From Trueperaceae bacterium (GTDB taxonomy: Bacteria; Deinococcota; Deinococci; Deinococcales; Trueperaceae): DNA of 64,000 nucleotides. A program made the translations under genes and the position numbers. The notes below the pieces were generated by a model. It worked only from the letters and a program-made list of their open reading frames with translations. It was not told where the DNA came from and did no database searches. Positions 637 to 45,851 of the stretch are shown here, one piece after another. The stretch is from contig OZ243913.1 in assembly GCA_965213705.1 (NCBI GenBank), forward strand, positions 160,001 to 224,000, given 5' to 3'. Position 1 is the stretch's first letter; the number at the start of each line of letters is the position of its first letter.

Positions 637-669
637 AGTATAGGGTTCAAACCCTTACAAATTTCTTAC
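637..669 (-). promoter_or_regulatory. Direct-repeat box GTAAG-AAATTT-GTAAG (654-669) plus -10 TATACT (637-642)
   Basis: One of six copies with identical 11-nt box-to--10 spacing; overlaps the mutM stop codon. Confidence 0.7.
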
Positions 670-1487
670 TTGCGCCGCGGCAGCTGACACTTCGGGCAAA
701 AGTGCGTGCCTCGCCCGGCCACGACGATTTTCGAAATCGGCGTGCCGCAGCGGGGACAGGGTGCCTCTTTTTGGCCGTAGGCGTTGAGTTCGTCCAGGTA
801 CGCCCCGACCTCGCCGTTGACGGTGCGGTAGTCGCGCAGGGTCGTGCCCTGAACCGCAATCGAGGCGGTAAGCACGTCTTTAATCATCGTCACCAGGAGC
901 GGGATTTGCCGTTTAGGGACGCGGTTCGAAGGGGTCAGCGGGTGGATTTTGCTCGCCCATAGCGCCTCGTCCGCGTAGATGTTGCCGACGCCCGACACGG
1001 GTTTTTGGCTCAGGAGGTAGGTTTTGACGGCGACGCTGGACTTAGCGAGCGCTTCGGCAAGCTGTTCGGGGTTGAAGGCGTCGCTCAGCGGTTCCGGCCC
1101 CATCGCGTGCAGGGTCGGCAAGCTTGTATAGTCGCCCGTCGGCACGACCAGAAAGCGCCCGAAGCGGCGCGCGTCTTGAAAGTAGAGGGTAGGGTTCTCG
1201 CCCTCGTCAAGCTCGAGCCTCACCCGCACGTGCTTACCGGGGTCGCGCGGACTGACGATGCCGGTCATGCCTAAGTGGACGACCATTTCGTCGCCGCGCT
1301 CGAGCGGCAACAGGAGAAACTTGCCGCGCCGGTTCACGGCGTCGATGCGCTGCCCGGCGGCGCGTTCCAGACCGGCGTACTTCGGGCCCGGCGGCGCGTC
1401 GACGCGCTCGGCTCTCAGGATGGTCCGCCCGGTAAGCCAGGGCGCTAGCTCGCGTCGGACGGTTTCGACTTCGGGAAGTTCGGGCAA
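666..1487 (-). CDS. mutM: Formamidopyrimidine-DNA glycosylase
   Basis: N-terminal PELPEVET, HLGMTG, GVGNIYADE, C-terminal CPRC…CPKCQ zinc finger. Confidence 0.97.
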   Translation of the reverse strand: MPELPEVETVRRELAPWLTGRTILRAERVDAPPGPKYAGLERAAGQRIDAVNRRGKFLLLPLERGDEMVVHLGMTGIVSPRDPGKHVRVRLELDEGENPTLYFQDARRFGRFLVVPTGDYTSLPTLHAMGPEPLSDAFNPEQLAEALAKSSVAVKTYLLSQKPVSGVGNIYADEALWASKIHPLTPSNRVPKRQIPLLVTMIKDVLTASIAVQGTTLRDYRTVNGEVGAYLDELNAYGQKEAPCPRCGTPISKIVVAGRGTHFCPKCQLPRRK

Positions 1488-1501
1488 GGGGTATCACCTC
1501 A

Positions 1502-1590
1502 AAGAAGTACCGAGTACCGAGTGGAAAGTAGAAAGTGAAAAAGAAAGTTCTAGCCTTTTCGCCTCTGCTCCTCTGCGCTTTCGGCTCGAG
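1502..1590. repeat. AGTACCG-heptamer-based intergenic repeat with imperfect hairpin
   Basis: AAGAAGTACCGAGTACCGAGT…; related units at 16738-16835 and inverted at 61710-61723. Confidence 0.5.
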
Positions 1591-1693
1591 ACGGTTCACC
1601 AACAGAAGCGTCCAACTTGCCTAGAGTCTACCGCGCGCCGAATTGCAGCGCCGTCGGCACCTCGACATGCCACGGTAGTGCTAGCCTGGGCGC

Positions 1694-3112
1694 ATGTCAC
1701 GCTTCGACGCCGCCGTGGTGGGTTCCGGGCCGAACGGGCTGGCCGCGGGAATCGTGCTCGCCCAGGCCGGGCTCAAGGTCGCGTTGTACGAGGCGCGCGA
1801 GACCGTCGGCGGCGGGATGCGTACTGCTGAACTCACGCTGCCAGGGTTCAAGCACGACGTTTGCTCGGCGATTCACCCGCTCGGGGTGGGCTCGCCGTTT
1901 TTCAGGACGTTGCCGCTTGAAAACTACGGCCTCGAGTGGGTCTACCCGGACGCGCCCCTGGCGCATCCGCTGGACGGCGGGGCGGTAGTGCTCGAGCGGT
2001 CGTTGGACGCGACGCTGGAAAACTTGGGCGAGGACGCCAGGGCCTACGAAGCGCTGTTCGCGCCCCTCGTCGAGCACTGGGAAGGACTTGCTGGCGACTT
2101 TCTCGGGCCGCTGTTGCGCTTTCCGCAGCACCCCCTGACGCTCGCCCGTTTCGGCGTGCGGGCGCTGCCGAGCGCGACGCTGTTGGCGAACACGGTGTTC
2201 AAGGGCGAACGGGCGCGGGCGCTGTTTGCAGGCCTGGCGGCGCATTCCATTTTGCCGCTCGAGGCCCCCGCGACCGCCGCCTTTGGGCTCGTGTTGGGGC
2301 TGCTTGGGCACGCGGTCGGCTGGCCGTTTCCGAAGGGCGGGGCGCAGGTGTTCGCCGACGCCCTCAGCGCGCACTTCAGGACGCTCGGCGGCGAGGTTTT
2401 TACGGGTGCGAAGGTCGAATCGCTCGAGGGGCTCGAGGCCAAAACCGTCCTGTTAGATGTCGGGGCCAAGCAGTTTTTGGGCATGGCGGACGACAGCTTG
2501 CCGAGTGATTACCGGCGGGCGCTCGAGCGCTACCGCCACGGCGCGGGCGTGTTCAAGCTCGACTACGCCCTCAGCGGCCCGGTGCCCTGGCGGGACGAGG
2601 CTTGCTTGCGCGCCGGGACGGTTCACGTGGGCGGAACGCTGAACGAGATTGCCGCTTCGGAACGGGCCATGAAACGGGGTGAAGTCCCTGAGCGGCCCTA
2701 CGTCTTGGTCGCGCAGCAAAGTTTGTTCGACCCCAGCCGCGCACCCGAGGGCAAGCACACCTTGTGGGCGTACTGCCACGTGCCGAACGGCTCGGCGGCG
2801 GACATGACGGAGGCGGTCGAGGCGCAGCTCGAGCGCTTCGCCCCCGGTTTTCGGGAGCGCGTGCTGGCGCGGCACACCATGAACGCTCCGGCTTTCGAGA
2901 GCTACAACCCCAACTACGTCGGCGGCGACATCAACGGCGGCGCGGCTAGTTTGTGGCAACTCTTGGCGCGGCCCGTCCCGCGCCCGAATCCTTACAAGAC
3001 ACCCTTGGACGGCGTTTACCTGTGCTCCGCCTCGACGCCTCCGGGTGGCGGCGTCCACGGCATGTGCGGTTACCACGCGGCGCGGGCGGCGCTGCGCGAA
3101 GTGTTGGGTTGA
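1694..3112 (+). CDS. FAD-dependent oxidoreductase, phytoene desaturase-like family
   Basis: VVGSGPNGLAA FAD motif, HDVCSAIHP, C-terminal STPPGGGVHGMCG. Confidence 0.88.
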   Translation: MSRFDAAVVGSGPNGLAAGIVLAQAGLKVALYEARETVGGGMRTAELTLPGFKHDVCSAIHPLGVGSPFFRTLPLENYGLEWVYPDAPLAHPLDGGAVVLERSLDATLENLGEDARAYEALFAPLVEHWEGLAGDFLGPLLRFPQHPLTLARFGVRALPSATLLANTVFKGERARALFAGLAAHSILPLEAPATAAFGLVLGLLGHAVGWPFPKGGAQVFADALSAHFRTLGGEVFTGAKVESLEGLEAKTVLLDVGAKQFLGMADDSLPSDYRRALERYRHGAGVFKLDYALSGPVPWRDEACLRAGTVHVGGTLNEIAASERAMKRGEVPERPYVLVAQQSLFDPSRAPEGKHTLWAYCHVPNGSAADMTEAVEAQLERFAPGFRERVLARHTMNAPAFESYNPNYVGGDINGGAASLWQLLARPVPRPNPYKTPLDGVYLCSASTPPGGGVHGMCGYHAARAALREVLG

Positions 3113-3235
3113 AGTCAAGCAGGTTTGCTTAAACAAACTACGTTTTGACAAGGCTGACGACGGGGTGACACGTTTGAGGTGATGGGTTGTGACTTACACC
3201 GTCAATCTTCTCCTCGGTCTGTTTATTCGCGCTGT

Positions 3236-4342
3236 TTATGCGTACAGGTAAAATCCGTTTTTGCCCCGTTTTTTGGCGCAGTACATCGCCTGGTCGGCCT
3301 GCGCGAGTAGGGCGTCGGGCGTGCCTGTAGTCGTTTGATAAATCGCAAAACCGACGCTGGCACTAACTTGGTATTCAACGCCTTTTAAGTCGAAGGGAGC
3401 TTGCAGCGTTTCTATCAACTTGGCGGCCACGGCGTTGACCCCTGCGGGCGTGGTAGCCGCCGGTAACAGCGCCGCAAACTCGTCACCGCTGATGCGCGCC
3501 AGCAAGTCTGCGGCGCGCAACTGCGTTTTCAAACGGGCGGCGACCTCTTTGAGAAGCAGGTCGCCTGCATGGTGACCAAGGGTGTCGTTGACCGTTTTAA
3601 AGTTGTCGAGGTCGATGAACGCCAGCGCAAACCCGCCCTGGTCGCGCTGAGCACTTTTGCAGGCCTGCGTTAAGTGAGTGTCGAACAGCAGCCGGTTGGG
3701 CAGTCCGGTCAGAGGGTCTTTGTAGGCCAGCTCGGCCACCGCCTCCGCACGGGCGCGCACCTGGTTGCTGACCTCTAAAAAGTGAGTAAGTGTGTAGAGC
3801 ATGGCAATATACACACCGCCCAAGGTGGGCACAGACAATAGAAACCCCTGGACGACGTCGTGCTCTGCTCGCGCGGGCGTCAGGTGCAACAAGTAAGGAG
3901 CGGCGAGCGCCAAGGTGCTGGCTATAAACAGGAGTGAGACTTGCAAACCTCGCCGCCTTTTGAAAGCTAAAAACGACCACACGTAAATGGGCGGCGAGAA
4001 CATCAAAAAAGCCTCGAGGTAAATTCGCATGTGAGGCTCTGACCTGCCGTACAGCAACTGCTCGAGCACCAGCAAGTTGTAGCTGCACAAAACGGCTAAA
4101 ATGCCCCACTCGACCAGTTTCAAGCTGTCCGGACGCACCCACAGCAAAAGTGCCAAAAGAGCGAGCGCGGCAAGAACCACCGGAACCAGCGTTTCATAGA
4201 AACTTTGAAACCATAAAAAGCCGCCCAGCAGCGTTTGGGATAGGCCCGCAGCGAAACCCAGCAGCAGGGCGACAAGGTAAAAGCTGCGCCGAGAGCGCTC
4301 TTCCAGAGCCGGGGGTTGGGGTTTGTTCGGGGCAGCGTACAA
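3236..4342 (-). CDS. Membrane-bound diguanylate cyclase (multi-TM plus GGDEF)
   Basis: Several hydrophobic helices, DPLTGLPNR, DLDNFKTVND, SGDEF active site. Confidence 0.9.
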   Translation of the reverse strand: MYAAPNKPQPPALEERSRRSFYLVALLLGFAAGLSQTLLGGFLWFQSFYETLVPVVLAALALLALLLWVRPDSLKLVEWGILAVLCSYNLLVLEQLLYGRSEPHMRIYLEAFLMFSPPIYVWSFLAFKRRRGLQVSLLFIASTLALAAPYLLHLTPARAEHDVVQGFLLSVPTLGGVYIAMLYTLTHFLEVSNQVRARAEAVAELAYKDPLTGLPNRLLFDTHLTQACKSAQRDQGGFALAFIDLDNFKTVNDTLGHHAGDLLLKEVAARLKTQLRAADLLARISGDEFAALLPAATTPAGVNAVAAKLIETLQAPFDLKGVEYQVSASVGFAIYQTTTGTPDALLAQADQAMYCAKKRGKNGFYLYA

Positions 4343-4352
4343 GGTAGCAAAC

Positions 4353-4385
4353 AGTGTAAGTCAGCAGACGTCACAAAACTCTTAC
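4353..4385 (-). promoter_or_regulatory. Direct-repeat box GTAAG-AGTTTT-GTGAC (4370-4385) plus -10 TACACT (4353-4358)
   Basis: 11-nt spacing; directly upstream of the GGDEF gene. Confidence 0.75.
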
Positions 4386-4533
4386 ACTTCGTCGGCACTC
4401 AGCGGCCCGCGTCGCGCTGCCGGGAGTCGTGCAGCTAAAAAAGCACAAAGGCAAACCCGCTCTACCGGCCGCCGGGGACGGCAGCGGTTCGCCGCTCTTT
4501 TTTTCTCTGTAGCCGCTTGGTTTATCATGCGCT

Positions 4534-6516
4534 ATGACCGACGTTTTGGAACCACCGCTCATCCCGCGCAAGCTGCTGTTCGGCAACCCCGAAAAAACGC
4601 AGGCGCGCCTCAGCCCGGACGGCACCCAACTCAGCTTTTTGGCGCCGCTGGACGGCGTGCTGAACGTTTTCATAGGGCCGGTGGGCGACGCGAGCGCGGC
4701 CCGGCCCGTCACTTTCGACAAACAGCGCGGCGTTCGCCAGCACGTCTGGGCCTACACGAACACCGACGTTCTTTATTTGCAAGACCAGGGCGGCGACGAG
4801 AACTGGCACCTCTACCGGGTCAACTTGTCCAGCGGCGAAACGCTCGACCTCACGCCGCTGGACGGGGTACAGGCGCAAATTCAGCACCTCAGCCCCGAGT
4901 TTCCGAACGAAGTGCTCGTCTTGCTCAACGACCGCGACCCGGCGGCCCACGACCTGTACCGGGTTGACGTAAACACCGGCGAGCGGAAAATCGTGCTGCA
5001 AAACGACGAGGGTTTTTTAGAACTCGTCAGCGACGAACAGTTTCGGGTGCGCTTCGGCGTGCGCATGACCCTCGACGGCGGCTCGGACATCTTCCAGCGC
5101 ACCGAGGTCGACACGTGGGCGAGCTACGCCTCGGTGGTGTTGGAAGACCAGCTGACCACGACGCCGGTCGGGGTGGCCGGCACCACCTTGTACCTGCTCG
5201 ACAGCCGCGGGCGCGACACGGGCGCGCTGTTCGACATAGACTTAGCGAACGGCGACCGCACGGTGTTGCTGGCCGACGAGCGCGTCGACGTCAGCGACGT
5301 GCTACGCCACCCGCGCACCCAGCGTGTTCAAGCCGCCGCCGTAGACTTTGAGAAAAAGCGCTGGGTCGCGCTCGACCCGGACATCGAAGCGGACTTGAAG
5401 TATTTGGGGACGGTCGCCGAGGGCGTGTTCGACGTCGTCGACCGCACCCTCATGGACGACGCCTGGATAGTCGCCTACCGCCCCGACGACGGCCCCGCGA
5501 GCTACTACTTGTACGAGCGGCCGGGGCTGAAAGCGCGGTTTTTGTTCTTCGACAAACCCGCCCTCGAGCCCGTCCCACTCGCCAAGCTGCACCCGGTCGT
5601 CATTCCTGCGCGGGACGGACTTGAGCTGATGAGCTACCTCACGCTTCCCTTAAACAGCCACGAAAACAGCGACCCGGACGGTTTGCCGCGGCCTGCACAA
5701 CCCCTGCCGACGGTGCTGCTCGTTCACGGCGGCCCCTGGGGGCGCGACGGCTGGGGTTTCGACCCGTACCACCAGCTCCTCGCCAACCGCGGCTACGCGG
5801 TGTTGAGCGTGAACTTTCGCGGCTCGACCGGTTTCGGCAAGGCGTTCGTCAACGCGGGCAACTTGGCCTGGGGCCGGGAGATGCACGACGACCTGCTCGA
5901 CGCGGTCGCCTGGGCGGTTGCAAAAGGCGTCGCGCAGGCGGACAAAGTCGCCATCATGGGCGGCTCTTACGGGGGTTACGCGGCGCTGGTGGGTCTCGCT
6001 TTCACGCCCGACGTGTTCGCGGCGGGCGTGGACATCGTGGGGCCGTCGAACCTCGTGACCCTGCTCGAGTCTATTCCGCCCTACTGGGCACCGATGCTCA
6101 ACATGCTCGCCACCCGCGTCGGCGACCCCCGCACCGAGGCGGGCCGAGAACTGTTGACGGAGCGCTCGCCCGTCAACCACGCCGACCGCATCGTCAAACC
6201 GCTCCTCATCGGCCAGGGCGCGAATGACCCGCGCGTCAAGCGGGCCGAGTCCGACGGCATCGTTCAGGCGCTGGAGAACAACGAGGTCCCGGTGACTTAC
6301 GTCCTTTATCCCGACGAAGGCCACGGCTTCGCCCGGCCCGAAAACGCGCTGTCGTTCAACGCCGTCGTCGAGGCGTTTTTGGCTCAGCACCTGGGCGGAC
6401 GCTTCGAGCCCGTGGGGAAAGATTTTGCGGGCTCGAGCCTCGAAGTCCTGAGCGGCTTGGACGGCGTGCCGGGTTTGGCGGAGGCCGTGACGGCCAAAAC
6501 AGAGGCCGAAGCGTGA
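4534..6516 (+). CDS. S9 family (dipeptidyl/acylaminoacyl) serine peptidase
   Basis: VHGGPW, GGSYGG nucleophile, DPRV, DEGHG; leaderless TATCAT-N5-ATG start. Confidence 0.93.
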   Translation: MTDVLEPPLIPRKLLFGNPEKTQARLSPDGTQLSFLAPLDGVLNVFIGPVGDASAARPVTFDKQRGVRQHVWAYTNTDVLYLQDQGGDENWHLYRVNLSSGETLDLTPLDGVQAQIQHLSPEFPNEVLVLLNDRDPAAHDLYRVDVNTGERKIVLQNDEGFLELVSDEQFRVRFGVRMTLDGGSDIFQRTEVDTWASYASVVLEDQLTTTPVGVAGTTLYLLDSRGRDTGALFDIDLANGDRTVLLADERVDVSDVLRHPRTQRVQAAAVDFEKKRWVALDPDIEADLKYLGTVAEGVFDVVDRTLMDDAWIVAYRPDDGPASYYLYERPGLKARFLFFDKPALEPVPLAKLHPVVIPARDGLELMSYLTLPLNSHENSDPDGLPRPAQPLPTVLLVHGGPWGRDGWGFDPYHQLLANRGYAVLSVNFRGSTGFGKAFVNAGNLAWGREMHDDLLDAVAWAVAKGVAQADKVAIMGGSYGGYAALVGLAFTPDVFAAGVDIVGPSNLVTLLESIPPYWAPMLNMLATRVGDPRTEAGRELLTERSPVNHADRIVKPLLIGQGANDPRVKRAESDGIVQALENNEVPVTYVLYPDEGHGFARPENALSFNAVVEAFLAQHLGGRFEPVGKDFAGSSLEVLSGLDGVPGLAEAVTAKTEAEA

Positions 6517-7598
6517 GGGCGGCTTCGGCCTCAGCTCTGGTCATCGTCGTTGTTTTAACGCTTCTCCAAACTGCGGTGTTTGCCCAAGACGCGTCCTTGC
6601 AGGTGGGTGTTTCAGAACTGCCGCCGTTCGCGTTTCAAACGGACGGGCAGTGGGACGGCGTCGCCGTGACGTTGTGGCGCGAGGTGGCGGACGACCTCGG
6701 CTTGGAGTTCGAGTTTGTGGCGACCGAGCCCGACGCGCTCGTTGGGGCGGTTGCGGACGGGACGCTCGACCTCGGGCTTACCGGCACCGCGACGGCCGAG
6801 GCCGAGGCGAGGGCCGACTTCTCGTATCCCTACTACACCACCACCTTGAGCGTGGCGACGCCGCGCGCGCAGAGCCTGTGGAACACGCTCAGGGGACTGT
6901 TCACGGCACGCTTTTTCAGGGTGGTGCTGTTTTTGTCGGTTCTGTTGCTCGTCGTCGGGGCGCTCGTGTGGCTGATAGAGCGCGGCGGCAACGAGGATTT
7001 CGGCGGCGAGCACAGCGCGCTGCAGGGCGTCGGCGCGGGTTTTTGGTGGGCGGCCGTGACCATGACGACGATTGGCTACGGCGACAAAGCGCCCGCCACC
7101 TTTTGGGGCCGCGCGCTGGCCTTTTTGTGGATGCTGCTGGCAATGGGCATTACCGCCAGCCTCACCGCCGCGCTCGTCTCGGTGGTGGGCGCGGGGGCGG
7201 GCGGTAGTCTGTCGGTGCCGAGCGACCTGCGGGGGACGAAGGTCGGCGTTGTGGCGGACACGCCCGCCGCGTCTTACCTGGAAGGAGAAGGTATAGGGTT
7301 CCGGGCGTTCGACACACCCTTGGCGGGTCTGCGCGCCTTACAGCAGGGCGACTTGGACGCGTTCCTGGCAAGCGACGCGACCCTTCGCTACCTAAAGAGC
7401 GAGAACTCGAGCCTCACCTTTCGCCGCACCGAAACAAACACCCGGCCGCAGCGCTACGCTTTCGTGTTACCCCAGGCCGACGCACAGACAAGCCCTAGCC
7501 GCGACCTGAACCGTGAAGACTTGAACCGTGTGCTCCTGACGCGCCTCAACGCCCAGCCCTGGGGGAGGTTGTTAGAGCGCTACCTGCTCAACGAGTAA
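6513..7598 (+). CDS. Substrate-binding domain fused to a K+ channel pore (GluR0-like ligand-gated channel)
   Basis: Signal peptide, split periplasmic-binding domain around TM-pore-TM with WWAAVTMTTIGYGD filter. Confidence 0.85.
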   Translation: MRAASASALVIVVVLTLLQTAVFAQDASLQVGVSELPPFAFQTDGQWDGVAVTLWREVADDLGLEFEFVATEPDALVGAVADGTLDLGLTGTATAEAEARADFSYPYYTTTLSVATPRAQSLWNTLRGLFTARFFRVVLFLSVLLLVVGALVWLIERGGNEDFGGEHSALQGVGAGFWWAAVTMTTIGYGDKAPATFWGRALAFLWMLLAMGITASLTAALVSVVGAGAGGSLSVPSDLRGTKVGVVADTPAASYLEGEGIGFRAFDTPLAGLRALQQGDLDAFLASDATLRYLKSENSSLTFRRTETNTRPQRYAFVLPQADAQTSPSRDLNREDLNRVLLTRLNAQPWGRLLERYLLNE

Positions 7599-7627
7599 CG
7601 ACCGAGTCAACTACCTGGCGAGCAACG

Positions 7628-8236
7628 CTAAGGCAGACCCTGTGGCAGCCAGAACACCAGCGCCGCGCAGGACACGCCTACAAAGAAGCCCCACACCACG
7701 TCGGGCACCGTGTGACGGCCTAAGTAGACGCGGGACCAAGCGACCAACCCGCACAGCGCAAACAGCAGCGCCCCAACCGGCGGTTGCAAAAAGGCGAGGA
7801 AGGTCGCGCAGGCCGCGTCGGTCAGGACGTGCAGACTCACCTTGTGGACGAGCAGGTTGACAAACGCCCCCACCGTAATCGCGACGAGCGCCGTAACAAG
7901 CGCCCACCACACGATTTCAGGTGCGGGCAGTACGGCGAGGGCGGCCAACAGAGCGACCATCGTCAGCCCGGCCATGACGTAAAGCGTGTGGCGGTCCTCG
8001 CGGCGCGACACGTCCCAGTCCTCGTAGCGCCCGCGCCGCACGCGAAACTGGATAAACGCGAACAAGGGCACCAGCGTCGTGCCGCAGGCGAAACAAGTCC
8101 ACAGCGTCGCCTCCAACGAGGTCGCCCCGGACAACCGCTGCACCGCGAACAGGGACAGCGGCGCGACAAACAGCGGGTGGAGCGCGCGCGACGCCCACAC
8201 GGCGATAAACTTTGGAACGGGCGAAAGCTCAGACAA
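7628..8236 (-). CDS. PAP2-like membrane protein
   Basis: KVSLH and WSRVYLGRHT motifs, multiple TMs. Confidence 0.75.
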   Translation of the reverse strand: MSELSPVPKFIAVWASRALHPLFVAPLSLFAVQRLSGATSLEATLWTCFACGTTLVPLFAFIQFRVRRGRYEDWDVSRREDRHTLYVMAGLTMVALLAALAVLPAPEIVWWALVTALVAITVGAFVNLLVHKVSLHVLTDAACATFLAFLQPPVGALLFALCGLVAWSRVYLGRHTVPDVVWGFFVGVSCAALVFWLPQGLP

Positions 8237-8567: not shown

Positions 8568-8606
8568 ATATTTACGATACTGCGCTCGAGAGGGCTTGTC
8601 CAGCCT

Positions 8607-13212: not shown

Positions 13213-13914
13213 TTACTCGCTCGCCTCGTCCAAAAACTGCTGCAACTTTTTCGGGTTGACCGTGATTGGTGCGCGGCGGCGGCGCACCGCGCCGTACTCG
13301 AGCAACCTCGCCAAGCAGTGCGACACGGTTTCGCGGGTCGCGCCTATCATCTTGGCTAAGTCTTGCTGGGTCAGGTTCAGGTCGATGACCGTGCCACGCT
13401 CGCCGTCGACGCCGAAGTCGCTCGAGAGCCGCAGCAGCAGGTTCGCCAAGCGGCCCGGCGCGTCGTAAGCGCCGACCTCGGCGAACCGCGCCTCGGCGCG
13501 CCACAGGTTGGTGGACATGACCTGGATGAACTTCATGGCGATTTTGGGGTACTGCTGGAGCAAGCGCTGAAAGTCGGTTTCGGGCAGCACGATGAGGGTG
13601 GTGTCGCTCACCGCCTCGGCCTGGTTGGGGCGGCGCTCGCTTTGCAGCAGCAGCAACTCGCCAAAAGCGTCGTACTTGCCGAACAGCGCCAAAATCATCT
13701 CTTTGCCGTTGGGAAAGTACATCGAGATTTTGACCATGCCGTCGCGGATAAAGTAGAGCGCGTCGGCGGGGTCTTCCATGTGGTAGATGATTTCCCCGGC
13801 GCTGAACTTTTTGTACGGGGTGATGCGGGTGATTTGCTCCAACTCGTCCTCGGACAAGTCTTCGAACAACTGCGTGTTTTTGAGGTGCCAAACGAGGCTG
13901 GGATATTCTTGCAT
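13213..13914 (-). CDS. Crp/Fnr family transcriptional regulator
   Basis: cNMP-binding FGE motif; HTH LTQQDLAKMIGATRETVS. Confidence 0.93.
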   Translation of the reverse strand: MQEYPSLVWHLKNTQLFEDLSEDELEQITRITPYKKFSAGEIIYHMEDPADALYFIRDGMVKISMYFPNGKEMILALFGKYDAFGELLLLQSERRPNQAEAVSDTTLIVLPETDFQRLLQQYPKIAMKFIQVMSTNLWRAEARFAEVGAYDAPGRLANLLLRLSSDFGVDGERGTVIDLNLTQQDLAKMIGATRETVSHCLARLLEYGAVRRRRAPITVNPKKLQQFLDEASE

Positions 13915-27660: not shown

Positions 27661-27795
27661 TTACTGCTCGGGTCTGAAGCCGTCCGCACAGGTTTTGCAG
27701 ATTTTCAAGCTCGGAGCCGTTACCGAAGCCGCGAAGCTGAGACCGCCGCCGACGAGGATGAGGCTGAAGAGCAAACCTTTAACGATGTTTTTCAT
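27661..27795 (-). CDS. Small secreted peptide, 44 aa (MKNIVKGLLFSLILVGGGLSFAASVTAPSLKICKTCADGFRPEQ)
   Basis: AAAGGA RBS, ATG, signal-peptide-like N-terminus, own promoter and terminator. Confidence 0.75.
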   Translation of the reverse strand: MKNIVKGLLFSLILVGGGLSFAASVTAPSLKICKTCADGFRPEQ

Positions 27796-27850: not shown

Positions 27851-27883
27851 AGTTTACAAAAGACTGTCTTACACAAATCTTAC
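27851..27883 (-). promoter_or_regulatory. Direct-repeat box GTAAG-ATTTGT-GTAAG (27868-27883) plus -10 TAAACT (27851-27856)
   Basis: 11-nt spacing; upstream of the peptide gene. Confidence 0.75.
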
Positions 27884-27901: not shown

Positions 27902-28846
27902 TTAGACGGGCTCGACCACGGCGACCGCGGCGCGAAACGCGCACACCACTTCGCGGGGGTAGTGGACGTCGGCGAACTTTTCTAACTCGGCAAAAGCGAC
28001 GGCGGGCGCTAAAGCGGCGCGGTAGGGGCGGTCGGTCGTCATGGCGTCGTAGGTGTCCGCGACCGCGACGATGTAGGACTCCGTCAAAATCTCCCCGTGG
28101 CTGAGCCCATAAGGGTAGCCCGAGCCGTCCATGCGCTCGTGGTGCTGTTCGACGATGACGCCGACGTCGGCGAGCAGCGTGCCCCCCAGCAGTTCTCGCC
28201 CGTAGGTCGGGTGTTGTTTGATGACGGCCCACTCTTCCGGGGTGAGGCTGGTGGGTTTTTGCAAGATGTCCAGGGGGACTTTCAGCTTGCCGACGTCGTG
28301 CAGGTACGCGCCGTAGGAGAGCCGGTAACACTGGTCTACGTCCAGCGCCAGGTTGCGCGCGGTCGCGTTCGACAAGTCTCTCAGGCGGGCACAGTGTTCC
28401 GAGGTGTAACCGTCTTTCTCCTCGACCTCGACGGCCAAGCGCATGAGGTCGCCTGTAAAGGTGTCGGCCTCGCTGAAAACGGGCTGGTTCGACACGCACA
28501 AAAGCGTCGCCCCGTGCAGCGTGCTCAGCACGGCGCGCTCGGCCGTCACGCCCACCGTCACGCTGTCGCCGGGCTCGAGCAAGCTTTTTTGATTTTTGCC
28601 GCTCAGCTCGAAGCAGCCCGACGTGACGTGGTAAACTTCCGCGCAGCGTTCGTCCGACGACTCGGGCGGGGTTAAAAACAACCGCCCGCCCGCCTCGACC
28701 CGGACCTCTATCACTTCAAAGCCGGGCTGTTTGTTGAGCAGACGTGCGTGCGTTTTGCGCGAGGCGAACGCCCGCACGCGGTCCCCCTTGCGGATGACGG
28801 CGAGCCCGCCTTTGGTCGGCACTGTGATGGTCACTTTGGGAGTCAC
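27902..28846 (-). CDS. HD-GYP phosphodiesterase with N-terminal cupin-like domain
   Basis: KDGYTSEH, LHDVGK, HHERMDGSGYP, ADTYDAMTTDRPYR. Confidence 0.92.
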   Translation of the reverse strand: MTPKVTITVPTKGGLAVIRKGDRVRAFASRKTHARLLNKQPGFEVIEVRVEAGGRLFLTPPESSDERCAEVYHVTSGCFELSGKNQKSLLEPGDSVTVGVTAERAVLSTLHGATLLCVSNQPVFSEADTFTGDLMRLAVEVEEKDGYTSEHCARLRDLSNATARNLALDVDQCYRLSYGAYLHDVGKLKVPLDILQKPTSLTPEEWAVIKQHPTYGRELLGGTLLADVGVIVEQHHERMDGSGYPYGLSHGEILTESYIVAVADTYDAMTTDRPYRAALAPAVAFAELEKFADVHYPREVVCAFRAAVAVVEPV

Positions 28847-28868: not shown

Positions 28869-28901
28869 AGCTTAGCAGCGCACTTGTCACAAAACTCTTA
28901 T
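28869..28901 (-). promoter_or_regulatory. Direct-repeat box ATAAG-AGTTTT-GTGAC (28886-28901) plus -10 TAAGCT (28869-28874)
   Basis: 15/16 identical to the 4370 box; 11-nt spacing; partial second box at 28925-28940. Confidence 0.75.
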
Positions 28902-29232
28902 GAAAACGGCCCAAAAGGCCTTGTGTGACAAAACTCCTTTTCATGTCCCTTCCGGTTAACTTCCTCAATTAACCCGAGCGGAATGAAAAGGAACAACTAT
29001 GGATTGTGCTGAGGAACGAGAACTTCTTTTGTTAGTTTAGCATGTATATTATAGAGATTCGTAGGATAACTCAAAAACAGGGCTGCACGGCCGTGACGTT
29101 GTGAAAAAGTCTTCAGCTGCGGATTTAGCTTAGTGTGGGCTCGAGGGCGACAACAATTTCGTTTACTTCGTTGAGTATAGTTATTCATTTTTCGAACCGG
29201 TGGGGCGGTTGCGCTTCGGCAGCTGAAACCAC

Positions 29233-33991: not shown

Positions 33992-37084
<3,093 letters not shown>

Positions 37085-37088: not shown

Positions 37089-38828
37089 TCAGCGGCCTCT
37101 GTTGGTTTGAAACGTCATAGCGACTTCGGTGTCCGTCTCGGTCTCGGCGGCGGCGAACCCTTCGAGAGGAGTTGACTCGTCCTCGCCGCCCTGGAACCTG
37201 GCGGTGCGGCGGCTGGGTAAGTGAACGCGCAAGGACAGCGCGTATTCGGATAGTTTAAGAAGCGCGTCCGACACCTTGAAACGCAGGCAGAACTCGCCGC
37301 TGTCCACCTTGCTGACGAGGTGAAACGGCGCTTGGCCCAGCAAGTCCAGAACCTTGAGCGCGTCTTCGCGGCCGACCTCTTCGTCTAGCACGTCGTCGAG
37401 GACGAAGACGGCGGGCGCTTTGAGGGCGGCCAAGTGCTGCAACACCGCCGAAAAAGTACCGCGTTCGCGAACACGGTCTTGGACGCCGCGCTCGAAGCGG
37501 TCAAAGCCTTTTTCAAACAAACCGTCACGCTCGAAATGGCTTTCTAGGTCGACGGGGCCGACCGGCAGGACGCCCAGCACGTTTTCCAAACGGCCCAACG
37601 CGGTCCAGGACCAGAGCGAGGTGTGCGCGACGTCTGCAGGCGCTTCGTACGAGGTGAGGTCGAGGGCGTGGCCGAACAACGCCGCGTAGGTCGAACCCAC
37701 TTCGCGGCGGCGCGCCGACAGGGCGGTAAGGTCGGGCTTGACGCGTTCGGGCAGCACGTGAACGAGCACGCTGTAGTAGCGCCTGCCTAGGTCGGCGTGA
37801 GCGAGCAGTTGACCGTGCGCCAAGCCTTCGACCCGGTAACCGAGCGCGACCAGCAGGCTTTTCGCGCGCTTTTGCTGGGACAAGTCACCCGGCTCTTGCT
37901 CGGAGTTGAGGCCGGTGTCGCCGGGAAAAATAACGACGCGCGGGTACGGCGTCACGCTGGCACGTTTGGCCTTGCCGGTTTTGGTAGCGTCGCGCAGCCG
38001 GGCGAAAGGCGCCTCGAAGAAGGGTTTTGTCGCCGGAAGGTGCGGTTTCGGCTCCGCCGAGGCCGTTGCCGACTGGGCCGGGGAAGTTTCAGCCTCGAGC
38101 CTCAGGGGTTCTTTGTTCAAATTTCGAGTGTTCAAATTGCGAGTGTTCGAACCGTGAGGGTTCGGATTCCCGACATCTGAACTCTCAGCGTTCGGATTTT
38201 CAGCGCTCGGATTTTCAGCGCTCGAGGCTTCGTTGTCCGGAGTCTGTCTGCTCAAACCCTCTTTGCTCAAACCCTCTTTGCTCAAACCCTCTTTGTTCAA
38301 ACCCCCGCCTGCGGCTTCTTTACCGGAGGCGCCGACGGTGACGCCCTTGCCGGTTCCGGCGGACGTTTCCGCGGACGCCGCGACGTGCCAGCGTCCTTTT
38401 TTAAAAGTAAAGCGGTCGTCTTTGGCGACCGCGTCGGCGAGAGTGCGCGGCTCCAGGTCCGGGTACAGCGCCTGCATCTCGGCTTCGGACAGGGCGACGC
38501 GCTGCTCGGCGAATGCCTTGAGCGCGTCCGGGGCCGCGCGGTCGTAGGGTTTGCGGGCGTTCTTAAAAGGCGTGAACGCGTAGTGGCCGTCGTCTTGCAG
38601 ACGAATCAGCACGGCGTCGTTGACCTCCAGGTCGTGCAGCTTGAAAAAGCCGTCGACCCCGCCGACGACGCGCGGCGCGTCGACGTGCAGGGTGAACTCT
38701 TCATTTTGCCGGGTGTCCAAAACCTTAAAGCTGCCCTCGCTCGGGAACAGCTCCAACATGCTTTGCGGTAACGTGAGTTGGCCGTTGCGAAGGCAGTAGC
38801 GGGTCAGCGTGTACTTGTACTCAGGCAT
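37089..38828 (-). CDS. Multidomain hypothetical protein with a low-complexity linker
   Basis: GGGGA RBS; 15-nt repeats (KEGLS, NPSAE, NTRNL) in the linker. Confidence 0.8.
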   Translation of the reverse strand: MPEYKYTLTRYCLRNGQLTLPQSMLELFPSEGSFKVLDTRQNEEFTLHVDAPRVVGGVDGFFKLHDLEVNDAVLIRLQDDGHYAFTPFKNARKPYDRAAPDALKAFAEQRVALSEAEMQALYPDLEPRTLADAVAKDDRFTFKKGRWHVAASAETSAGTGKGVTVGASGKEAAGGGLNKEGLSKEGLSKEGLSRQTPDNEASSAENPSAENPNAESSDVGNPNPHGSNTRNLNTRNLNKEPLRLEAETSPAQSATASAEPKPHLPATKPFFEAPFARLRDATKTGKAKRASVTPYPRVVIFPGDTGLNSEQEPGDLSQQKRAKSLLVALGYRVEGLAHGQLLAHADLGRRYYSVLVHVLPERVKPDLTALSARRREVGSTYAALFGHALDLTSYEAPADVAHTSLWSWTALGRLENVLGVLPVGPVDLESHFERDGLFEKGFDRFERGVQDRVRERGTFSAVLQHLAALKAPAVFVLDDVLDEEVGREDALKVLDLLGQAPFHLVSKVDSGEFCLRFKVSDALLKLSEYALSLRVHLPSRRTARFQGGEDESTPLEGFAAAETETDTEVAMTFQTNRGR

Positions 38829-39264
38829 GGTCTATCCCCTTCGAAACACGTCGTAAAAGGCTATGCAGTTCTTTTTAAGCTCCTCAAAGCTCAGGGTTGT
38901 CGCTAGTTAACAGCTTGCTCGGTAGCTGGGTCCGAGTCTACCAGACCTCTTTACAAGATGTGTGAACACCTCTTGTACCCAAGCGGCGCGCCAAGACAAG
39001 GTATAGCACTGAAAAACCCGAAGCGTCCTACCTCCGGGGCCTCCTGTTCTTGGCTTGGGCGAGTATAAAACGCTTTTGTCCCCAACCTCAATAGGGTGTC
39101 ACGAGCACCGGCACGCCGAACCTGTGCAAGAACCGTTTTGTACCCCGGTTCGCCTCAAACTCAGGGGGCATTGAGTAAACTTGGGCGTTGTTGATAGAGG
39201 TTTCTCAAGCTCTGTGACGAGTTGCGCTGACAAAGCGGTTAAGTCGAGAAACTGGAAAGGACTT

Positions 39265-41309
39265 ATGAACCCTTTACTTTCACGCGAATTTGTTATTCCC
39301 TTCGACAAAATAGATGCGGTATCCGTCGAGAGGGGCGTCGACACGGCGCTGGCGCAGGCTCGAGCCGATTTAGCTGCGCTGCTCACCGACGACCGCCCCC
39401 CCACCTACGCCACGACCCTGCAAGCCTTAGACGACCTCACCGAGCGTTTGGGGCGCGCCATGACCCTCGCTTATCACCTCGTCTCGGTCACCACGACGCC
39501 CCCGTTGCGCGCCGCCTTCAACGCCGCGCTGCCTGCCTACTCGGCATTTTTTGCGCAGTTGCCGCTGAACGAACAGCTGTGGCAACTCCTCAAAACCTAC
39601 GCCGACACGCCCGAGGCGAAGGCGTTGCAGGGCGTCAAAAAGCGCCACCTGGACAAAACCTTACAAGAGTTCAGGCGTGCCGGGGCCGACCTGGACCCCG
39701 ACGCCAAAGCGCGGGTCGAACAGGTTCAGGTCGAACTGAGCCGACTGCAGACGAAATTCTCCGAAAACGTCCTCGACGCGACCAACGCCTACGAACTCGT
39801 CGTCACCGACGAAACGCGCCTGAGCGGTCTGCCCGACTCGGTCAAGGCGCAGGCCAAAGCCGACGCGGCGGCCAAGAACAAAGAGGGCTGGCGCTTTACC
39901 CTGCAAGCGCCGTCCTACACGCCGTTTATGAAGTTCGCCGACGCCAGAGACCTGCGCCGCGAACTGTACGAGGCCTTTGTCAGCCGCGCCAGCACCGGCG
40001 ACCTGGACAACCGCCCGAACATCGACAAGATTTTAGCGTTGCGCAAAGAACTCGCTACCTTGCTCGGCTACCGCGACTTCGCCGACTACCGTTTGGAAAC
40101 CAACATGGTGAAGTCGGGCGACGCCGCGCTGGCTTTCGAGCGAGACCTGTTCGACAAGACTTTAGAGCACTGGCAGCAAGAAAAAGACGCGCTCACTGGT
40201 TTTGCCGCGACGCTGGGGTTGGACGACCTCCAACCCTACGACCTCGCCTACCTCACCGAAAAGCTGCGCAAGGCGCGGTACGACCTGGACGAGGAAGAGT
40301 TGCGGCCTTATTTTCCACTTCAACAAGTCCTGAGCGGCTTATTCGACATCGCTGGGCGGCTGTTCGGTGTGACCGTGAGCCGACGCGACAACGCCCAGGT
40401 GTGGCACGAGGACGTCGAGTTCTACGACCTCCACGACGAGGCGGGCACCCACCTGGGCTCGTTTTACGCCGACTGGTTCCCGCGCGAGAGCAAGCAGGGC
40501 GGCGCTTGGAAAAACGGCTTCATCATCGGCGGGCCGCTCGAGGACGGGTCCGACCCCCACGCTTTCGACCCTCACTTGGCGGTCATCGTCGCCAACTTTA
40601 CGCCGCCGCAAGAGGGTAAGCCCGCGCTGCTGACCCACCGCGAGGTGCAGACCATCTTCCACGAGTTCGGCCACCTGCTCCACCACGCGCTGTCCCGCGT
40701 CACGGTGCGCGCGCGCGGCGCGACCAACGTACCGCGCGACTGGGTCGAACTGCCCTCGCAGATTATGGAAAATTGGATTTGGGAACGCGACGCGCTGAAC
40801 CTGTTCGCGCGTCACTTTGAGACCGGCGAGCCCATCCCCGACGCGCTCTTTGCCAAGATGACCGCCGCCCAGACCTTTATGGAGGCGAGTGCGCAGGTGC
40901 GCCAACTGAGCTTGGGCACGATCGACCTGCTGCTCCACACGAGCTATAACCAAGAACGTGACGGTGACGTCGTCGCATTCGCCAACCGCACGATGGAGCC
41001 CTTTGTGCTGCGCCCCGAGTTCGCGCACAACAGCTTTTTGACCGCCTTCAGCCACGTGTTCGCGGGCGGTTACGCGGCGAGCTACTACAGCTACAAGTGG
41101 TCCGAAGTGCTGGACGCCGACGCTTTTTCACGCTTCAAGGCCGAGGGCATCTTCAACCGTGAAACGGGCCGCGACTACGCCGAGGCCGTCCTGTCGCGCG
41201 GCGACAGCGAGGACCCGGCCGAGTTGTTTCGCGAGTTCATGGGCCGCGACCCGGACGCCGCAGCCCTGATTGAACGCAACCTGGGACCGCTCGAAGGGGT
41301 GCCGAGCTG

Positions 41310-41310
<1 letters not shown>
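39265..41310 (+). CDS. M3A metallopeptidase (oligopeptidase A-like)
   Basis: FHEFGHLLH, VELPSQ, GGYAASYYSYKW. Confidence 0.93.
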
Positions 41311-43136
<1,826 letters not shown>

Positions 43137-43160
43137 CTCGCCTGCAAAGTGGAACTGTAG

Positions 43161-43219
43161 GTAGTCAGAATTCAGTAGTCCGTCGTCAGCATCGTTCGAA
43201 CCTACTGAATTCTGGCTAC
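43161..43219. repeat. Heptamer-built inverted repeat between convergent pepF and vapC
   Basis: GTAGTCAGAATTCAGTAG…CTACTGAATTCTGGCTAC. Confidence 0.65.
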
Positions 43220-43223
43220 TGCT

Positions 43224-43640
43224 TTATCCCTCGAGCGGCAACCTCAAGGTTTTCAAATCGGTGTGCTGGAAGTCGTCACCGACAAAAGCAAGCGTTTCAC
43301 CCGTAGCTTTGGCGAGCGCGTAGCTCATCACGTCGCCGTAGTTCAGGGCGGCGGGGTGGCCCTGGCCTTTGCCGTATAGAAGGTAAGCTTCGCGGGCTAT
43401 TCGGGCGTGTTTGACGGATAAGGGGACGACCTCTAGTTCCGCCTCGAGCACGAACTCGTCCACACGGCTCAGCGCTTCCGCCGGAGTTACGGTTTGGTCA
43501 CGCGACAGCACCGCTTGCACCTCGACAAGTGAAGCTGCTGAGATGAGCCGCGCTTTTTGTTGTTTGAGAAGGGTCAAACTCTCGAGCCAGCCCGCTTCTC
43601 GGAGCATGATTTGGATGACGACGCTGGTGTCGAAGACCAT
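43224..43640 (-). CDS. vapC: VapC PIN-domain toxin
   Basis: VFDTS, GHPAALNYGD, GDDF. Confidence 0.92.
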   Translation of the reverse strand: MVFDTSVVIQIMLREAGWLESLTLLKQQKARLISAASLVEVQAVLSRDQTVTPAEALSRVDEFVLEAELEVVPLSVKHARIAREAYLLYGKGQGHPAALNYGDVMSYALAKATGETLAFVGDDFQHTDLKTLRLPLEG

Positions 43641-43892
43641 TCAGGGCATACCCAACAGATGTTCGATTTCTTCTTTGGTGGGGGCCTTACCGAGCGAGTC
43701 GGGGGGAAACATTGTGTGGATTTTGCGCTTTGTGAACTCAACCAAGCGCTCCAATTCCTTGTCTTCCTCCAAACTTCTACGGTAACTTTCCAGGGCTTCG
43801 ATGACGAGTTCGGTTTTTCCCTTGCCCGTGCGCTTGGTGAGGTCGTTTAAGAGTTCGACGGCGTGGTCATTCTTGATGCTGAACTGTTGCAT
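43641..43892 (-). CDS. vapB: VapB antitoxin
   Basis: FSIKND…GKTELVIEAL; leaderless TATGCT-N6-ATG; palindromes TTTGTACAAA and CTACA…TGTAG upstream. Confidence 0.85.
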   Translation of the reverse strand: MQQFSIKNDHAVELLNDLTKRTGKGKTELVIEALESYRRSLEEDKELERLVEFTKRKIHTMFPPDSLGKAPTKEEIEHLLGMP

Positions 43893-44005
43893 GGGGTCAG
43901 CATAGCACGGTTTGTACAAACTACAGAGATTTGTAGAAAACGGTTTGTCGACGAACGCAACCGAGAAACCTCAACCCTGTAACGGCACCCGACGGCCGCG
44001 GCGCG

Positions 44006-44038
44006 GTGAGATTTTTGTAAGAGGAAACTCGCTAGACT
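44006..44038 (+). promoter_or_regulatory. Direct-repeat box GTGAG-ATTTTT-GTAAG (44006-44021) plus -10 TAGACT (44033-44038)
   Basis: 11-nt spacing; upstream of the TPR-GGDEF gene. Confidence 0.75.
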
Positions 44039-44102
44039 TTGAGCCGGAGGCAAAAACACTCGAGCGGGCCACGACCGCCCCCGAGTAGAAGGGCTCAGGG
44101 CT

Positions 44103-45686
44103 GTGACAACCCCCTACATCACCGACATCGTCCCACCCGACAGCGTCCCACCCGACAGCGTCGACGACGGTCGGCTTGCCGCGGCCGAAGCGCTGTTCGC
44201 AGCCTGCCGCTACGAGGCGGCGTTGGCAAGTTTGGAGGGGCTGCAAGAAATCGTCCACCGCGACCTTGACAAGTTCCGGCTTTACACACTCCTCGCCGAC
44301 TGCCACGCTCGCTTGGAACAACCTGCGGTGTCGCTCCGTTACGCCCTACAGGGCCTACGACACAGCCAGTCCTTGGACAACGCCAGCCGCGCCGAGGCGC
44401 ACTATCAGGTCGGCCGCGGCTACGGCATGATGAACGCCGAAACGAACGCCCTGGAGCACCTGCTCGCCGCGCACCGGCTCTACGCCTGCGACAACGGCAG
44501 AGTGCTCAACGGGATTGCCATTTGTCACAACCTGTTGGAGGAGTACGACCAAGCCGTAAGTTTTTACCAAAAAAGTCGCGAGGCCGCCCGCCGCGAAAAC
44601 CGTCTGGACGACGAACTGACGGCCACGGCCAACCTGAGCCGAACCTACTTTTTGCAGGACAAACTGCAAGAAGCCGCCGACGAAGCGCGTTTCGGCGTCG
44701 ACTTGGCGTTTGCAAGTCGACTAAGTCAACAGCGGTATCTTTGCTTGTGTCAGCTGTTGCAGGTTTACACGACGATGAGTCGCTTTGACGACGCGCGGGC
44801 TTGCCTCGAGCAAGCCATCGCCGCAGAAGCGTCGAAAGACGTCGTAAAAGCCCCTTTTTCGGAAGCCTACTACGGCGAGTATTGTCTCAAAATTCGAGAC
44901 CTCGAGCGCGCCGAAGCTCACCTGCTCAGGGCGCTCGAGCTGACCGTCGCCTACCCGGAAGACCTCATTCGGACCCACAAACTTTTGGCCCGGCTTTTTG
45001 AGTTGAAAGACGACTACAGCCGCGCCCTGAAACATCACAAAGAGGCGCACGGCTTAGAGGTCAAACGGCTCAAAGACGCGTTTTCAAGCCGCAGCGCCGC
45101 GCTCGTCATCGAACACGAGGTCGAACGCGTGCGCCAAGAGCAAGAACGCTACCGGCAGGTGAACTTGGCGCTGACCCGAGAAGTCGAAGGGCTTGCCGAA
45201 CTCAGCCGCCGCGACGCGTTGACCGGGCTGTACAACCGCCGTTTTTTGGACGCCTACCTCGCTCAGACCTGCACCAACGCCACCGCGCTCGGGCAGTCTT
45301 TGAGCGTGCTCGCCGTCGACATCGACAATTTCAAAACCATCAACGACACCTTCTCGCACGCGGTCGGCGACGCCGTGTTGAAACGCGTCGCCGAGCTGTT
45401 CACCGCCACTTTGCGCGCCAGCGACGTGGCGGCGCGTTACGGGGGCGAAGAGTTTATCATCGTCCTGGCCGACACAGGTGTTACCGTGGGGTTGCAAGTA
45501 GCTGAGAAAGTCCGCGCGGCGGTGAGCGAACACGTTTGGGCGCAGGTCGCGCCGGGCTTGAACGTGACCGTGAGTCTCGGGCTTGCCGGCGGCTCGGCTC
45601 ACTTAGTGCCCGAACACCTGTTGGCCCAGGCCGACGTCAAGCTCTACGAAGCGAAGCGGTCCGGCAGGAACCGCACGGTTCACTGA
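44103..45686 (+). CDS. TPR-repeat diguanylate cyclase
   Basis: TPR-like helices; DALTGLYNRR, RASD I-site, GGEEF. Confidence 0.9.
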   Translation: MTTPYITDIVPPDSVPPDSVDDGRLAAAEALFAACRYEAALASLEGLQEIVHRDLDKFRLYTLLADCHARLEQPAVSLRYALQGLRHSQSLDNASRAEAHYQVGRGYGMMNAETNALEHLLAAHRLYACDNGRVLNGIAICHNLLEEYDQAVSFYQKSREAARRENRLDDELTATANLSRTYFLQDKLQEAADEARFGVDLAFASRLSQQRYLCLCQLLQVYTTMSRFDDARACLEQAIAAEASKDVVKAPFSEAYYGEYCLKIRDLERAEAHLLRALELTVAYPEDLIRTHKLLARLFELKDDYSRALKHHKEAHGLEVKRLKDAFSSRSAALVIEHEVERVRQEQERYRQVNLALTREVEGLAELSRRDALTGLYNRRFLDAYLAQTCTNATALGQSLSVLAVDIDNFKTINDTFSHAVGDAVLKRVAELFTATLRASDVAARYGGEEFIIVLADTGVTVGLQVAEKVRAAVSEHVWAQVAPGLNVTVSLGLAGGSAHLVPEHLLAQADVKLYEAKRSGRNRTVH

Positions 45687-45689
45687 GTT

Positions 45690-45794
45690 GCCGCGTACTG
45701 GGCAGCCACGTACCGAGCAGCCGCATACCGAACAGCCGCGTACCGGGCAGTGACGTACCGAACAGTGACGTTTTCGACAGTGGGGTTCCGAAGA
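45690..45794. repeat. Degenerate 15-bp tandem repeat (about 7 units)
   Basis: gccgcgtactgggca / gccacgtaccgagca / gccgcataccgaaca / gccgcgtaccgggca / gtgacgtaccgaaca…. Confidence 0.8.
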
Positions 45795-45818
45795 TTCTCG
45801 GTTTCAGGCCCTTGCGCC

Positions 45819-45851
45819 GTCAGATTTCTGTGACAGCTGCACATTTATACT
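45819..45851 (+). promoter_or_regulatory. Direct-repeat box GTCAG-ATTTCT-GTGAC (45819-45834) plus -10 TATACT (45846-45851)
   Basis: 11-nt spacing; upstream of the PAS-GAF-GGDEF-EAL gene. Confidence 0.75.

Follow-up and report, generated by a model that had tools for sequence, protein, structure and literature searches.

A direct-repeat promoter box before c-di-GMP genes and other genes in a Trueperaceae genome

The pho box bound by PhoB has two 11-bp units, each with a conserved part of 7 bp and an A/T-rich part of 4 bp; it replaces the -35 element and is placed about 10 nt before the -10 element. At the level of the regulon, Sigma-S controls many GGDEF/EAL genes in Escherichia coli. Here we describe a promoter box with similarities to both systems, found in a stretch of 64,000 nucleotides from a Trueperaceae bacterium (assembly GCA_965213705.1, contig OZ243913.1, genome positions 160001–224000), which we call the window. 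Six promoters in the window share a direct repeat at a fixed distance from the -10, and four of them precede genes of cyclic di-GMP (c-di-GMP) enzymes. The shared box is real and beyond chance. The six sites belong to a class of about 75 promoters, in which the box is probably the site of one tandemly bound activator of the response-regulator type, similar to CiaR or PhoB. Elements of this kind are known, and the novelty lies in the content of the regulon, found in an uncultured family of Deinococcota. A search of the literature on Deinococcus and Truepera, both for this motif and for the control of c-di-GMP, gave no description of the box, going by the search results alone.

CiaR of streptococci provides the closest documented comparison. 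The CiaR box is NTTAAG-N5-TTTAAG with T, A and G invariant, and it was searched at 10 nt before the -10 (PMC3091779). Several CiaR promoters drive small terminated RNAs in which stretches complementary to Shine-Dalgarno sequences occur (PMC3091779). When TTTAAG is changed to TGTAAG in the CiaR box, regulation is not impaired (PMC9603419). The Trueperaceae box is also a direct repeat of hexamers with a TAAG core, 5 nt apart (11-bp period), and its half-site TGTAAG is one that is functional for CiaR. The distance to the -10 differs, 11 nt instead of 10 nt. Both boxes precede short terminated RNAs, but those of Trueperaceae are only predicted and are CU-rich. The CiaR regulon comprises 15 promoters, whereas here there are about 75, with half of the c-di-GMP enzymes, in a different phylum (Deinococcota).

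The likeness with the pho box lies in the two units of 11-bp period in place of the -35. However, no phosphate genes are found among the targets, and the PhoB-like regulators L094 and L097 do not stand out. With Sigma-S the box shares the presence of one global transcription input over about half of the c-di-GMP makers and breakers of the genome. Sigma-S is an alternative sigma factor, whereas here we find an add-on box at housekeeping-type promoters and no such sigma factor tracks it.

The box in the window and in the genome

Read in the sense of the gene, all six sites have a 5-6-5 box (GTrAG, a T-rich hexamer and GTrAs), then 11 nt, then TAnnCT. Their letters, coordinates and orientation, given in an earlier note on this DNA, were all borne out when the sequence was read again. 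They are the only sites of the window which reach 14 bits with the weight matrix described below. The features are the following:

669-637 (-): site 1, GTAAG-AAATTT-GTAAG/N11/TATACT
654-669 (-): box 1, GTAAG-AAATTT-GTAAG, 29.4 bits; it overlaps the stop codon of fpg (669-1487)
637-642 (-): -10 of promoter 1, TATACT, 11 nt after box 1
589-631 (-): predicted RNA of promoter 1, about 42 nt, with a CCUCC-rich 5' end and loop and a putative start
4385-4353 (-): site 2, GTAAG-AGTTTT-GTGAC/N11/TACACT
4370-4385 (-): box 2, GTAAG-AGTTTT-GTGAC, 28.7 bits
4353-4358 (-): -10 of promoter 2, TACACT
3236-4342 (-): GGDEF diguanylate cyclase gene behind promoter 2 (PF00990, 163.7 bits)
27883-27851 (-): site 3, GTAAG-ATTTGT-GTAAG/N11/TAAACT
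27868-27883 (-): box 3, GTAAG-ATTTGT-GTAAG, 34.0 bits
27851-27856 (-): -10 of promoter 3, TAAACT
27661-27795 (-): open reading frame (ORF) of 44 amino acids behind box 3, with a signal-peptide-like N-terminus and no family match
28901-28869 (-): site 4, ATAAG-AGTTTT-GTGAC/N11/TAAGCT
28886-28901 (-): box 4, ATAAG-AGTTTT-GTGAC, 32.1 bits
28869-28874 (-): -10 of promoter 4, TAAGCT
27902-28834 (-): HD-GYP phosphodiesterase gene behind promoter 4 (PF13487, 111.7 bits)
44006-44038 (+): site 5, GTGAG-ATTTTT-GTAAG/N11/TAGACT
44006-44021 (+): box 5, GTGAG-ATTTTT-GTAAG, 31.0 bits
44033-44038 (+): -10 of promoter 5, TAGACT
44103-45686 (+): TPR-GGDEF gene behind promoter 5, by Pfam
45819-45851 (+): site 6, GTCAG-ATTTCT-GTGAC/N11/TATACT
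45819-45834 (+): box 6, GTCAG-ATTTCT-GTGAC, 33.8 bits
45846-45851 (+): -10 of promoter 6, TATACT
45861-48784 (+): PAS-GAF-GGDEF-EAL gene behind promoter 6; AGGAG precedes the ATG chosen here, at 45861 (the gene caller starts this gene at 45935)

The genome forms a single contig of 4,246,949 bp with 60.9% G+C. A strict regular expression, just wide enough to hold the six window sites, matches it 16 times, compared with 1, 1, 2, 0 and 0 matches in five shuffles which keep the local composition. A weight matrix seeded with these 16 strict sites converged, in four iterations, on tGTAAGAATTTTGTAAGa-N10-TAnACT. It gives 76 sites with at least 20 bits (2 in a shuffled genome) and 90 sites with at least 16 bits (14 in the shuffled one). 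The consensus of the 16-bp box is tGTAAG-AATTT-TGTAAGa, in which the half-sites form a direct repeat with an 11-bp period. The spacer has the consensus AATTTT and is T-rich in all 16 strict sites. Even without any spacer sequence, GTAAG-N5-TGTAAG occurs 14 times and its reversed control is absent. Most sites begin in intergenic DNA (69 of 76), in a genome which is 81.5% coding according to a rough gene caller based on a dicodon model (3853 genes). The matrix is nearly or wholly uninformative in its columns beyond the box and the -10, and the sequences downstream differ among sites, therefore the box does not belong to a dispersed repeat or mobile element, whose similarity would extend into the flanks.

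The genes behind the box were taken as the best coding ORF starting within 450 nt of each of the 76 sites, which gives 58 distinct ORFs, and they were scanned with Pfam. GGDEF, GGDEF-EAL or HD-GYP proteins make up 20 of these 58. Conversely, family searches in the whole genome give 30 GGDEF, 10 EAL and 10 HD_5 matches, which fall in 40 called genes. A site with at least 20 bits is found within 400 nt upstream of 18 of these 40 genes, compared with 59 of all 3853 genes (Fisher 1e-23). Two further c-di-GMP genes (1625285 and 3964808) carry a site which is hidden by their start calls. The expectation that a matrix scan of the genome would find such sites enriched before GGDEF, EAL and HD-GYP genes is thus confirmed. 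A stronger claim, that every c-di-GMP gene with a visible upstream region carries the box, holds for the four window genes concerned; in the whole genome it is true for about half of them. The fifth c-di-GMP gene of the window (61743-63953, -) has its upstream DNA outside it and shows no site (best 1.3 bits).

The other targets include PelF (181.6 bits against a cut-off of 100), a PilT/PilU ATPase (425.5 bits against 319.1), a type IV pilin, three subtilases, a patatin, a DPBB_1 protein, Lon and a REC-only protein. Many small box-driven proteins have no family match, and no similarity was found among them. Some boxes precede housekeeping genes (CysS, the glutaminyl-tRNA synthetase GlnRS and MgsA), so that their absence before such genes, reported for the window, does not extend to the genome. 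The description as a regulon of c-di-GMP and secreted peptides is right in the enrichment of c-di-GMP genes, but too narrow: the regulon has about 75 promoters and also reaches Pel, pili, subtilases and small RNAs.

Box 4 has a second, degenerate box (AAAGG-AGTTTT-GTCAC) 24 nt upstream of it, at 28925-28940 (-). Its spacer hexamer is identical to those of boxes 2 and 4, and no TAnnnT follows it. A small GGCC...GGCC hairpin lies between this copy and box 4.

Promoter anatomy and the kind of protein which may read the box

The ordinary promoters of this species can be read from its leaderless genes, 575 of which have TAnnnT 5–8 nt before the start codon. There is a clear peak at 5–7 nt, where the three offsets together hold 539 genes; other offsets hold about 30 each. 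The hexamers of these genes (TAnACT) have A at position 4 in 55% and C at position 5 in 60% of cases; a G is found two bases upstream of the -10 in 65%, and there is no -35 signal. Leaderless mRNAs are used on a large scale throughout the genome, with examples in the window at 4342 and 45861. Since these generic promoters also have TAnACT, the -10 of the box promoters is the ordinary housekeeping -10, and the box is an addition to it. A start codon follows at the leaderless distance in at least 9 of the 76 box promoters.

The distance between box and -10 was also studied with a definition of the box which ignores the -10 and finds 70 boxes in the genome. TAnnnT stands exactly 11 nt after 27 of them, at 10 nt after 4 and at 12 nt after 1. 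The other offsets from 6 to 15 have at most 4 boxes each and offset 16 has 5, while the control side has about 1 per offset. All 27 boxes at exactly 11 nt point toward the -10. Only 9 of these 27 promoters have the G of an extended -10, compared with the 65% of generic leaderless promoters given above.

Transcription would start 6–7 nt after each -10. Independent support for a start just past these -10 elements comes from three of the six c-di-GMP-II-GAG riboswitches of the genome, discussed below, which begin 19–53 nt downstream of a box-promoter -10.

The box has what is expected of an OmpR/PhoB-type site: a direct repeat with 11-bp period, an A/T-rich spacer and a fixed, oriented place at the -35 position. 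Its anatomy is similar to that of CiaR boxes and its geometry is that of class II activation: the two half-sites have the same orientation and are separated by a helical turn, the spacer is rich in T, the housekeeping -10 stands at a single distance, there is no -35, and the extended -10 is weak. These features lead us to read it as the site of an activator bound in tandem to the two half-sites, which would take over from a -35 element in recruiting RNA polymerase. A single protein would read all the sites, and its output would be a joint build-up of the c-di-GMP network, enzymes for synthesis and for breakdown alike, along with its effectors for surface and biofilm functions. The earlier note had proposed that one activator of this family co-induces the genes; the 11-bp direct repeat replacing the -35 at a fixed 11 nt agrees with it, while activation rather than repression, the reading by a single protein and the identity of this protein are what we infer from the sequence pattern.

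A site of the CRP/FNR type is rejected, as the half-sites are direct and not inverted in all 16 strict sites. The window has a gene of the Crp/Fnr family at 13216-13914 (-), with best similarity to NtcA/CRP, below the cut-offs; nothing links it to the box.

Alternatively, the box could be the operator of a repressor, which would cover the -35 region and silence the promoters; a signal, which might be c-di-GMP itself, would then lift it. The box is indeed placed where a bound protein would block RNA polymerase, and several targets are of the feedback type, with makers as well as breakers of c-di-GMP among them. However, a repressor needs neither an exact distance nor a given orientation, yet the 27 of 70 boxes at 11 nt show both. 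The scarcity of the extended -10 G fits promoters which need help rather than silencing, and the geometry is the same as in proven activators such as CiaR (PMC3091779). A repressor appears rather unlikely to us.

Distribution in related species and candidate regulators

We compared 30 genomes of the same order: 18 other Trueperaceae (family f1), nine genomes of families f2, f3 and f4, and three of family f5, a sister family. They were scanned with the spacer-free pattern GTAAG-N5-TGTAAG, for which the reversed control gives 0–3 matches per genome. The pattern is present in 17 of the 18 other Trueperaceae and in the three f5 genomes; none was found in the nine genomes of f2, f3 and f4. The form with a T-rich spacer is concentrated in the larger genomes, while relatives with fewer sites more often have spacers such as AGTTC. 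A division of the relatives into box-positive and box-negative with a TTTT-spacer pattern was discarded as misleading, because it demanded the TTTT spacer; the spacer-free pattern occurs in nearly all f1 genomes.

The content of the regulon varies among relatives. In G004, which belongs to another genus, GGDEF or HD-GYP genes are 4 of the 12 ORFs behind boxes, and five targets of our species have orthologues with a box. These are two GGDEF proteins (65% and 69% identity), a REC-HD-GYP protein (57%), an HD-GYP protein (52%) and, as the fifth target, a 56-residue ORF with a DPBB_1 gene (56% and 49%). The N11/TAnnnT geometry is kept in 6 of the 8 boxes of G018 and in 3 of the 6 boxes of G008. Among the products of the genes found there are histidine kinases, a GspH-type pilin, DPBB_1, a REC-only protein and a BTAD-STAND protein. 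The BTAD-STAND protein (L198, on contig C47 of G008) is an NTPase of at least 803 amino acids of the wHTH-like-BTAD-STAND type (wHTH, winged helix-turn-helix), which could be a downstream or autoregulated regulator.

No regulator of the window stands out, in agreement with the earlier note, which saw no evident activator gene in it. In the whole genome we profiled across the relatives eight of the nine Trans_reg_C regulators, all except L094, with one of them (L098) followed in five genomes only; of eight BTAD proteins the profiles cover L066, and the genome also encodes seven REC-GerE regulators. The candidate which among these fits best the phyletic pattern of the box is a two-component pair at genome positions 41268-43204. 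Its regulator L099 (42443-43204), a protein of 253 amino acids with REC and Trans_reg_C (wHTH) domains, lies behind a 392-residue histidine kinase and hemD-hemB. Orthologues of L099 are found in 16 of 18 f1 genomes, 2 of 3 in f5, none of 3 in f2 and in f3, and 1 of 3 in f4. It is concordant with the box in 25 of the 30 genomes, which are kin and thus not independent. The recognition helix of another regulator, L096 (3022003-3022689), is the most similar to the CiaR helix printed in PMC3091779. L095, L096 and L097 were rejected as regulators which track the box, since they are order-wide, and L093, L098, L100 and L101 have distributions which differ from that of the box. A search for autoregulation gave no OmpR-type gene with a good upstream site; the best, 11.9 bits before L098, was unconvincing on reading. 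L102, a protein of 988 amino acids with AAA, TPR and wHTH parts, was also rejected: it lacks a box and shows no relationship to the BTAD protein which a box drives in G008.

SARPs bind direct repeats of 11-bp period next to the -10. A reader of this kind, with wHTH and BTAD domains, could be L066 (1626847-1627899, REC-wHTH-like-BTAD) or one of seven other BTAD proteins. L066 adjoins a box-driven GGDEF gene and has orthologues in 16 of the 18 f1 genomes (the two which lack it have 0 and 1 box), in all three f5 genomes and in none of the six f3 and f4 genomes. PDB alignments of OmpR-type regulators reach its middle region, to residue 207, and in G008 a box drives the BTAD-STAND gene mentioned above. 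However, homologues of L066 with 43–44% identity are present in the three f2 genomes, which are box-free, and its wHTH is only marginally detected (Trans_reg_C E = 0.068). We consider a SARP-type reader quite improbable.

A third explanation, that the box is the -35 of an alternative sigma factor (the second full sigma-70 or one of three sigma factors of the extracytoplasmic-function type), is very improbable: the motif does mark a discrete gene set, and two full sigma-70 proteins (450 and 454 amino acids, 53% identical) and three small proteins of the sigma-70 family are encoded, but the -10 is of the housekeeping type, the half-sites end 11 and 22 nt before it (neither is the 15–19 nt spacing of the sigma-70 family), and a tandem repeat is not read by a single sigma region 4. 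In region 4.2 the two sigma-70 proteins have almost the same helix. The second sigma-70 is rejected as a reader because a close orthologue (89% identity) was found only within the genus, in the sister species G001, while the box spans two families. The sigma-70 genes, L067 (3143893-3145245) and L068 (3183966-3185330), both contain regions 1.2–4, and the second is divergent from the REC-GerE gene L060.

We return to the activator of the CiaR/PhoB kind, which has several observations against it. Half of the c-di-GMP genes of the genome, 20 of 40, have no box. In G018 and G008, the scan of the main ORFs at 14 box loci gave no c-di-GMP enzyme gene, therefore the name c-di-GMP regulon fits this genus and G004, and not the whole clade; the clade-wide core looks like one of surface and signalling genes, with heavy recruitment of c-di-GMP genes in this genus and G004. 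The site with the highest score in the genome (3347725) has no counterpart at this gene in the sister species, where that stretch is missing, and a box upstream of the AAA+ gene behind it was found in 0 of 80 loci of the relatives (best 12.6 bits). L099 and the box disagree in 5 of the 30 genomes (G005, G009, G010, G029 and G030), and no box precedes the L099 operon. L096 is conserved at 81–100% across the order and is 81–88% identical in families in which no box was found. Finally, in favour of the repressor, sequence alone does not show the sign of the regulation.

Riboswitches, short RNAs and the wider regulon

Rfam detects c-di-GMP-II-GAG riboswitches (RF03169) in the leaders of two box-driven subtilases. 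The genome has six copies in total, with 48.9–57.2 bits (gathering score 40). The third one in the leader of a box promoter precedes an ORF of 44 amino acids at 127845, with a signal-peptide-like N-terminus and a degenerate box (20.9 bits); the remaining three are behind other promoters. The three riboswitch leaders of box promoters are at genome positions 878889, 3132824 and 127676. Half of the copies are thus shared with the box, although the riboswitch is a downstream RNA element and not a part of it. No c-di-GMP-I riboswitch was found, but that search matched nowhere and says little.

The ORF at 127845-127979 and the one in the window at 27661-27795 both code for 44 amino acids with a signal-peptide-like N-terminus, and each adjoins an HD-GYP gene. 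Their sequences look unrelated. The first has a degenerate box and a riboswitch, the second has the box alone.

Several box promoters have no ORF behind them and meet an intrinsic terminator within 40–80 nt. Their predicted RNAs are rich in runs of the CCUCC type, and no known Rfam family was matched by the short RNAs behind boxes. This is the case for the genome's top-scoring site, which precedes a short terminated RNA; further short RNAs are predicted at 36402, 1864373 and 2734110. Sites 1542743, 1197502 and 1245891 precede three related short RNAs (L104–L106), with the common segments TTACTGAGC...GCTCAC. They have about 70–80 nt, share TTACTGAGC...CTTCCCTGCTCAC and have a terminator hairpin at the end. 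Site 1 of the window had been taken as the promoter of a hypothetical gene, which probably does not hold: a terminator with a stem of 9 pairs (8 G-C) at 620-595 (-) and a T7 run follows about 10 nt past the expected start. Because of this strong hairpin, promoter 1 more likely makes the RNA of about 42 nt, using the fpg terminator, than an mRNA of the ORF of 153 amino acids at 51-512. The 47-nt stretch at this promoter folds with -18.9 kcal/mol (z -3.8).

In its widest form, the interpretation would be that one two-component regulator acts as the master switch of the whole c-di-GMP apparatus of Trueperaceae. We put it forward only tentatively, and we think it is rather doubtful. Cyclases and phosphodiesterases would be transcribed together. 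The secreted proteases and a small secreted peptide would be under the control of two keys: the box promoter must fire and the leader riboswitch, of the c-di-GMP-II type, must permit expression. The short RNAs rich in CCUCC would mask Shine-Dalgarno sites, and the many leaderless mRNAs would escape them.

For bacteria with dozens of c-di-GMP enzymes it has long been asked how they decide which of these to have at any one time; an answer exists for few organisms and, to our knowledge, for none in Deinococcota. The regulon described here is new in its combination of half of the c-di-GMP enzymes with proteases gated by riboswitches, pili, Pel and candidate anti-Shine-Dalgarno RNAs. The box offers a wiring diagram which can be tested directly for an uncultured family, and any genome or metatranscriptome of Trueperaceae can be scanned for it. 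It comes with a small set of named candidate regulators and, at some promoters, is naturally paired with a riboswitch for a second messenger. If the reading is true, one activator would switch on together the signalling network of biofilm and motility.

Two of the targets have peculiarities of their own. The PAS-GGDEF-EAL gene L015 (945453-947543), whose box has 43.8 bits, contains a TGA between its GGDEF and EAL parts, and its EAL match reads across this one stop. The glutaminyl-tRNA synthetase (L048, 3901216-3903522) has a C-terminal GatB/YqeY domain, a fusion which is known from Deinococcus.

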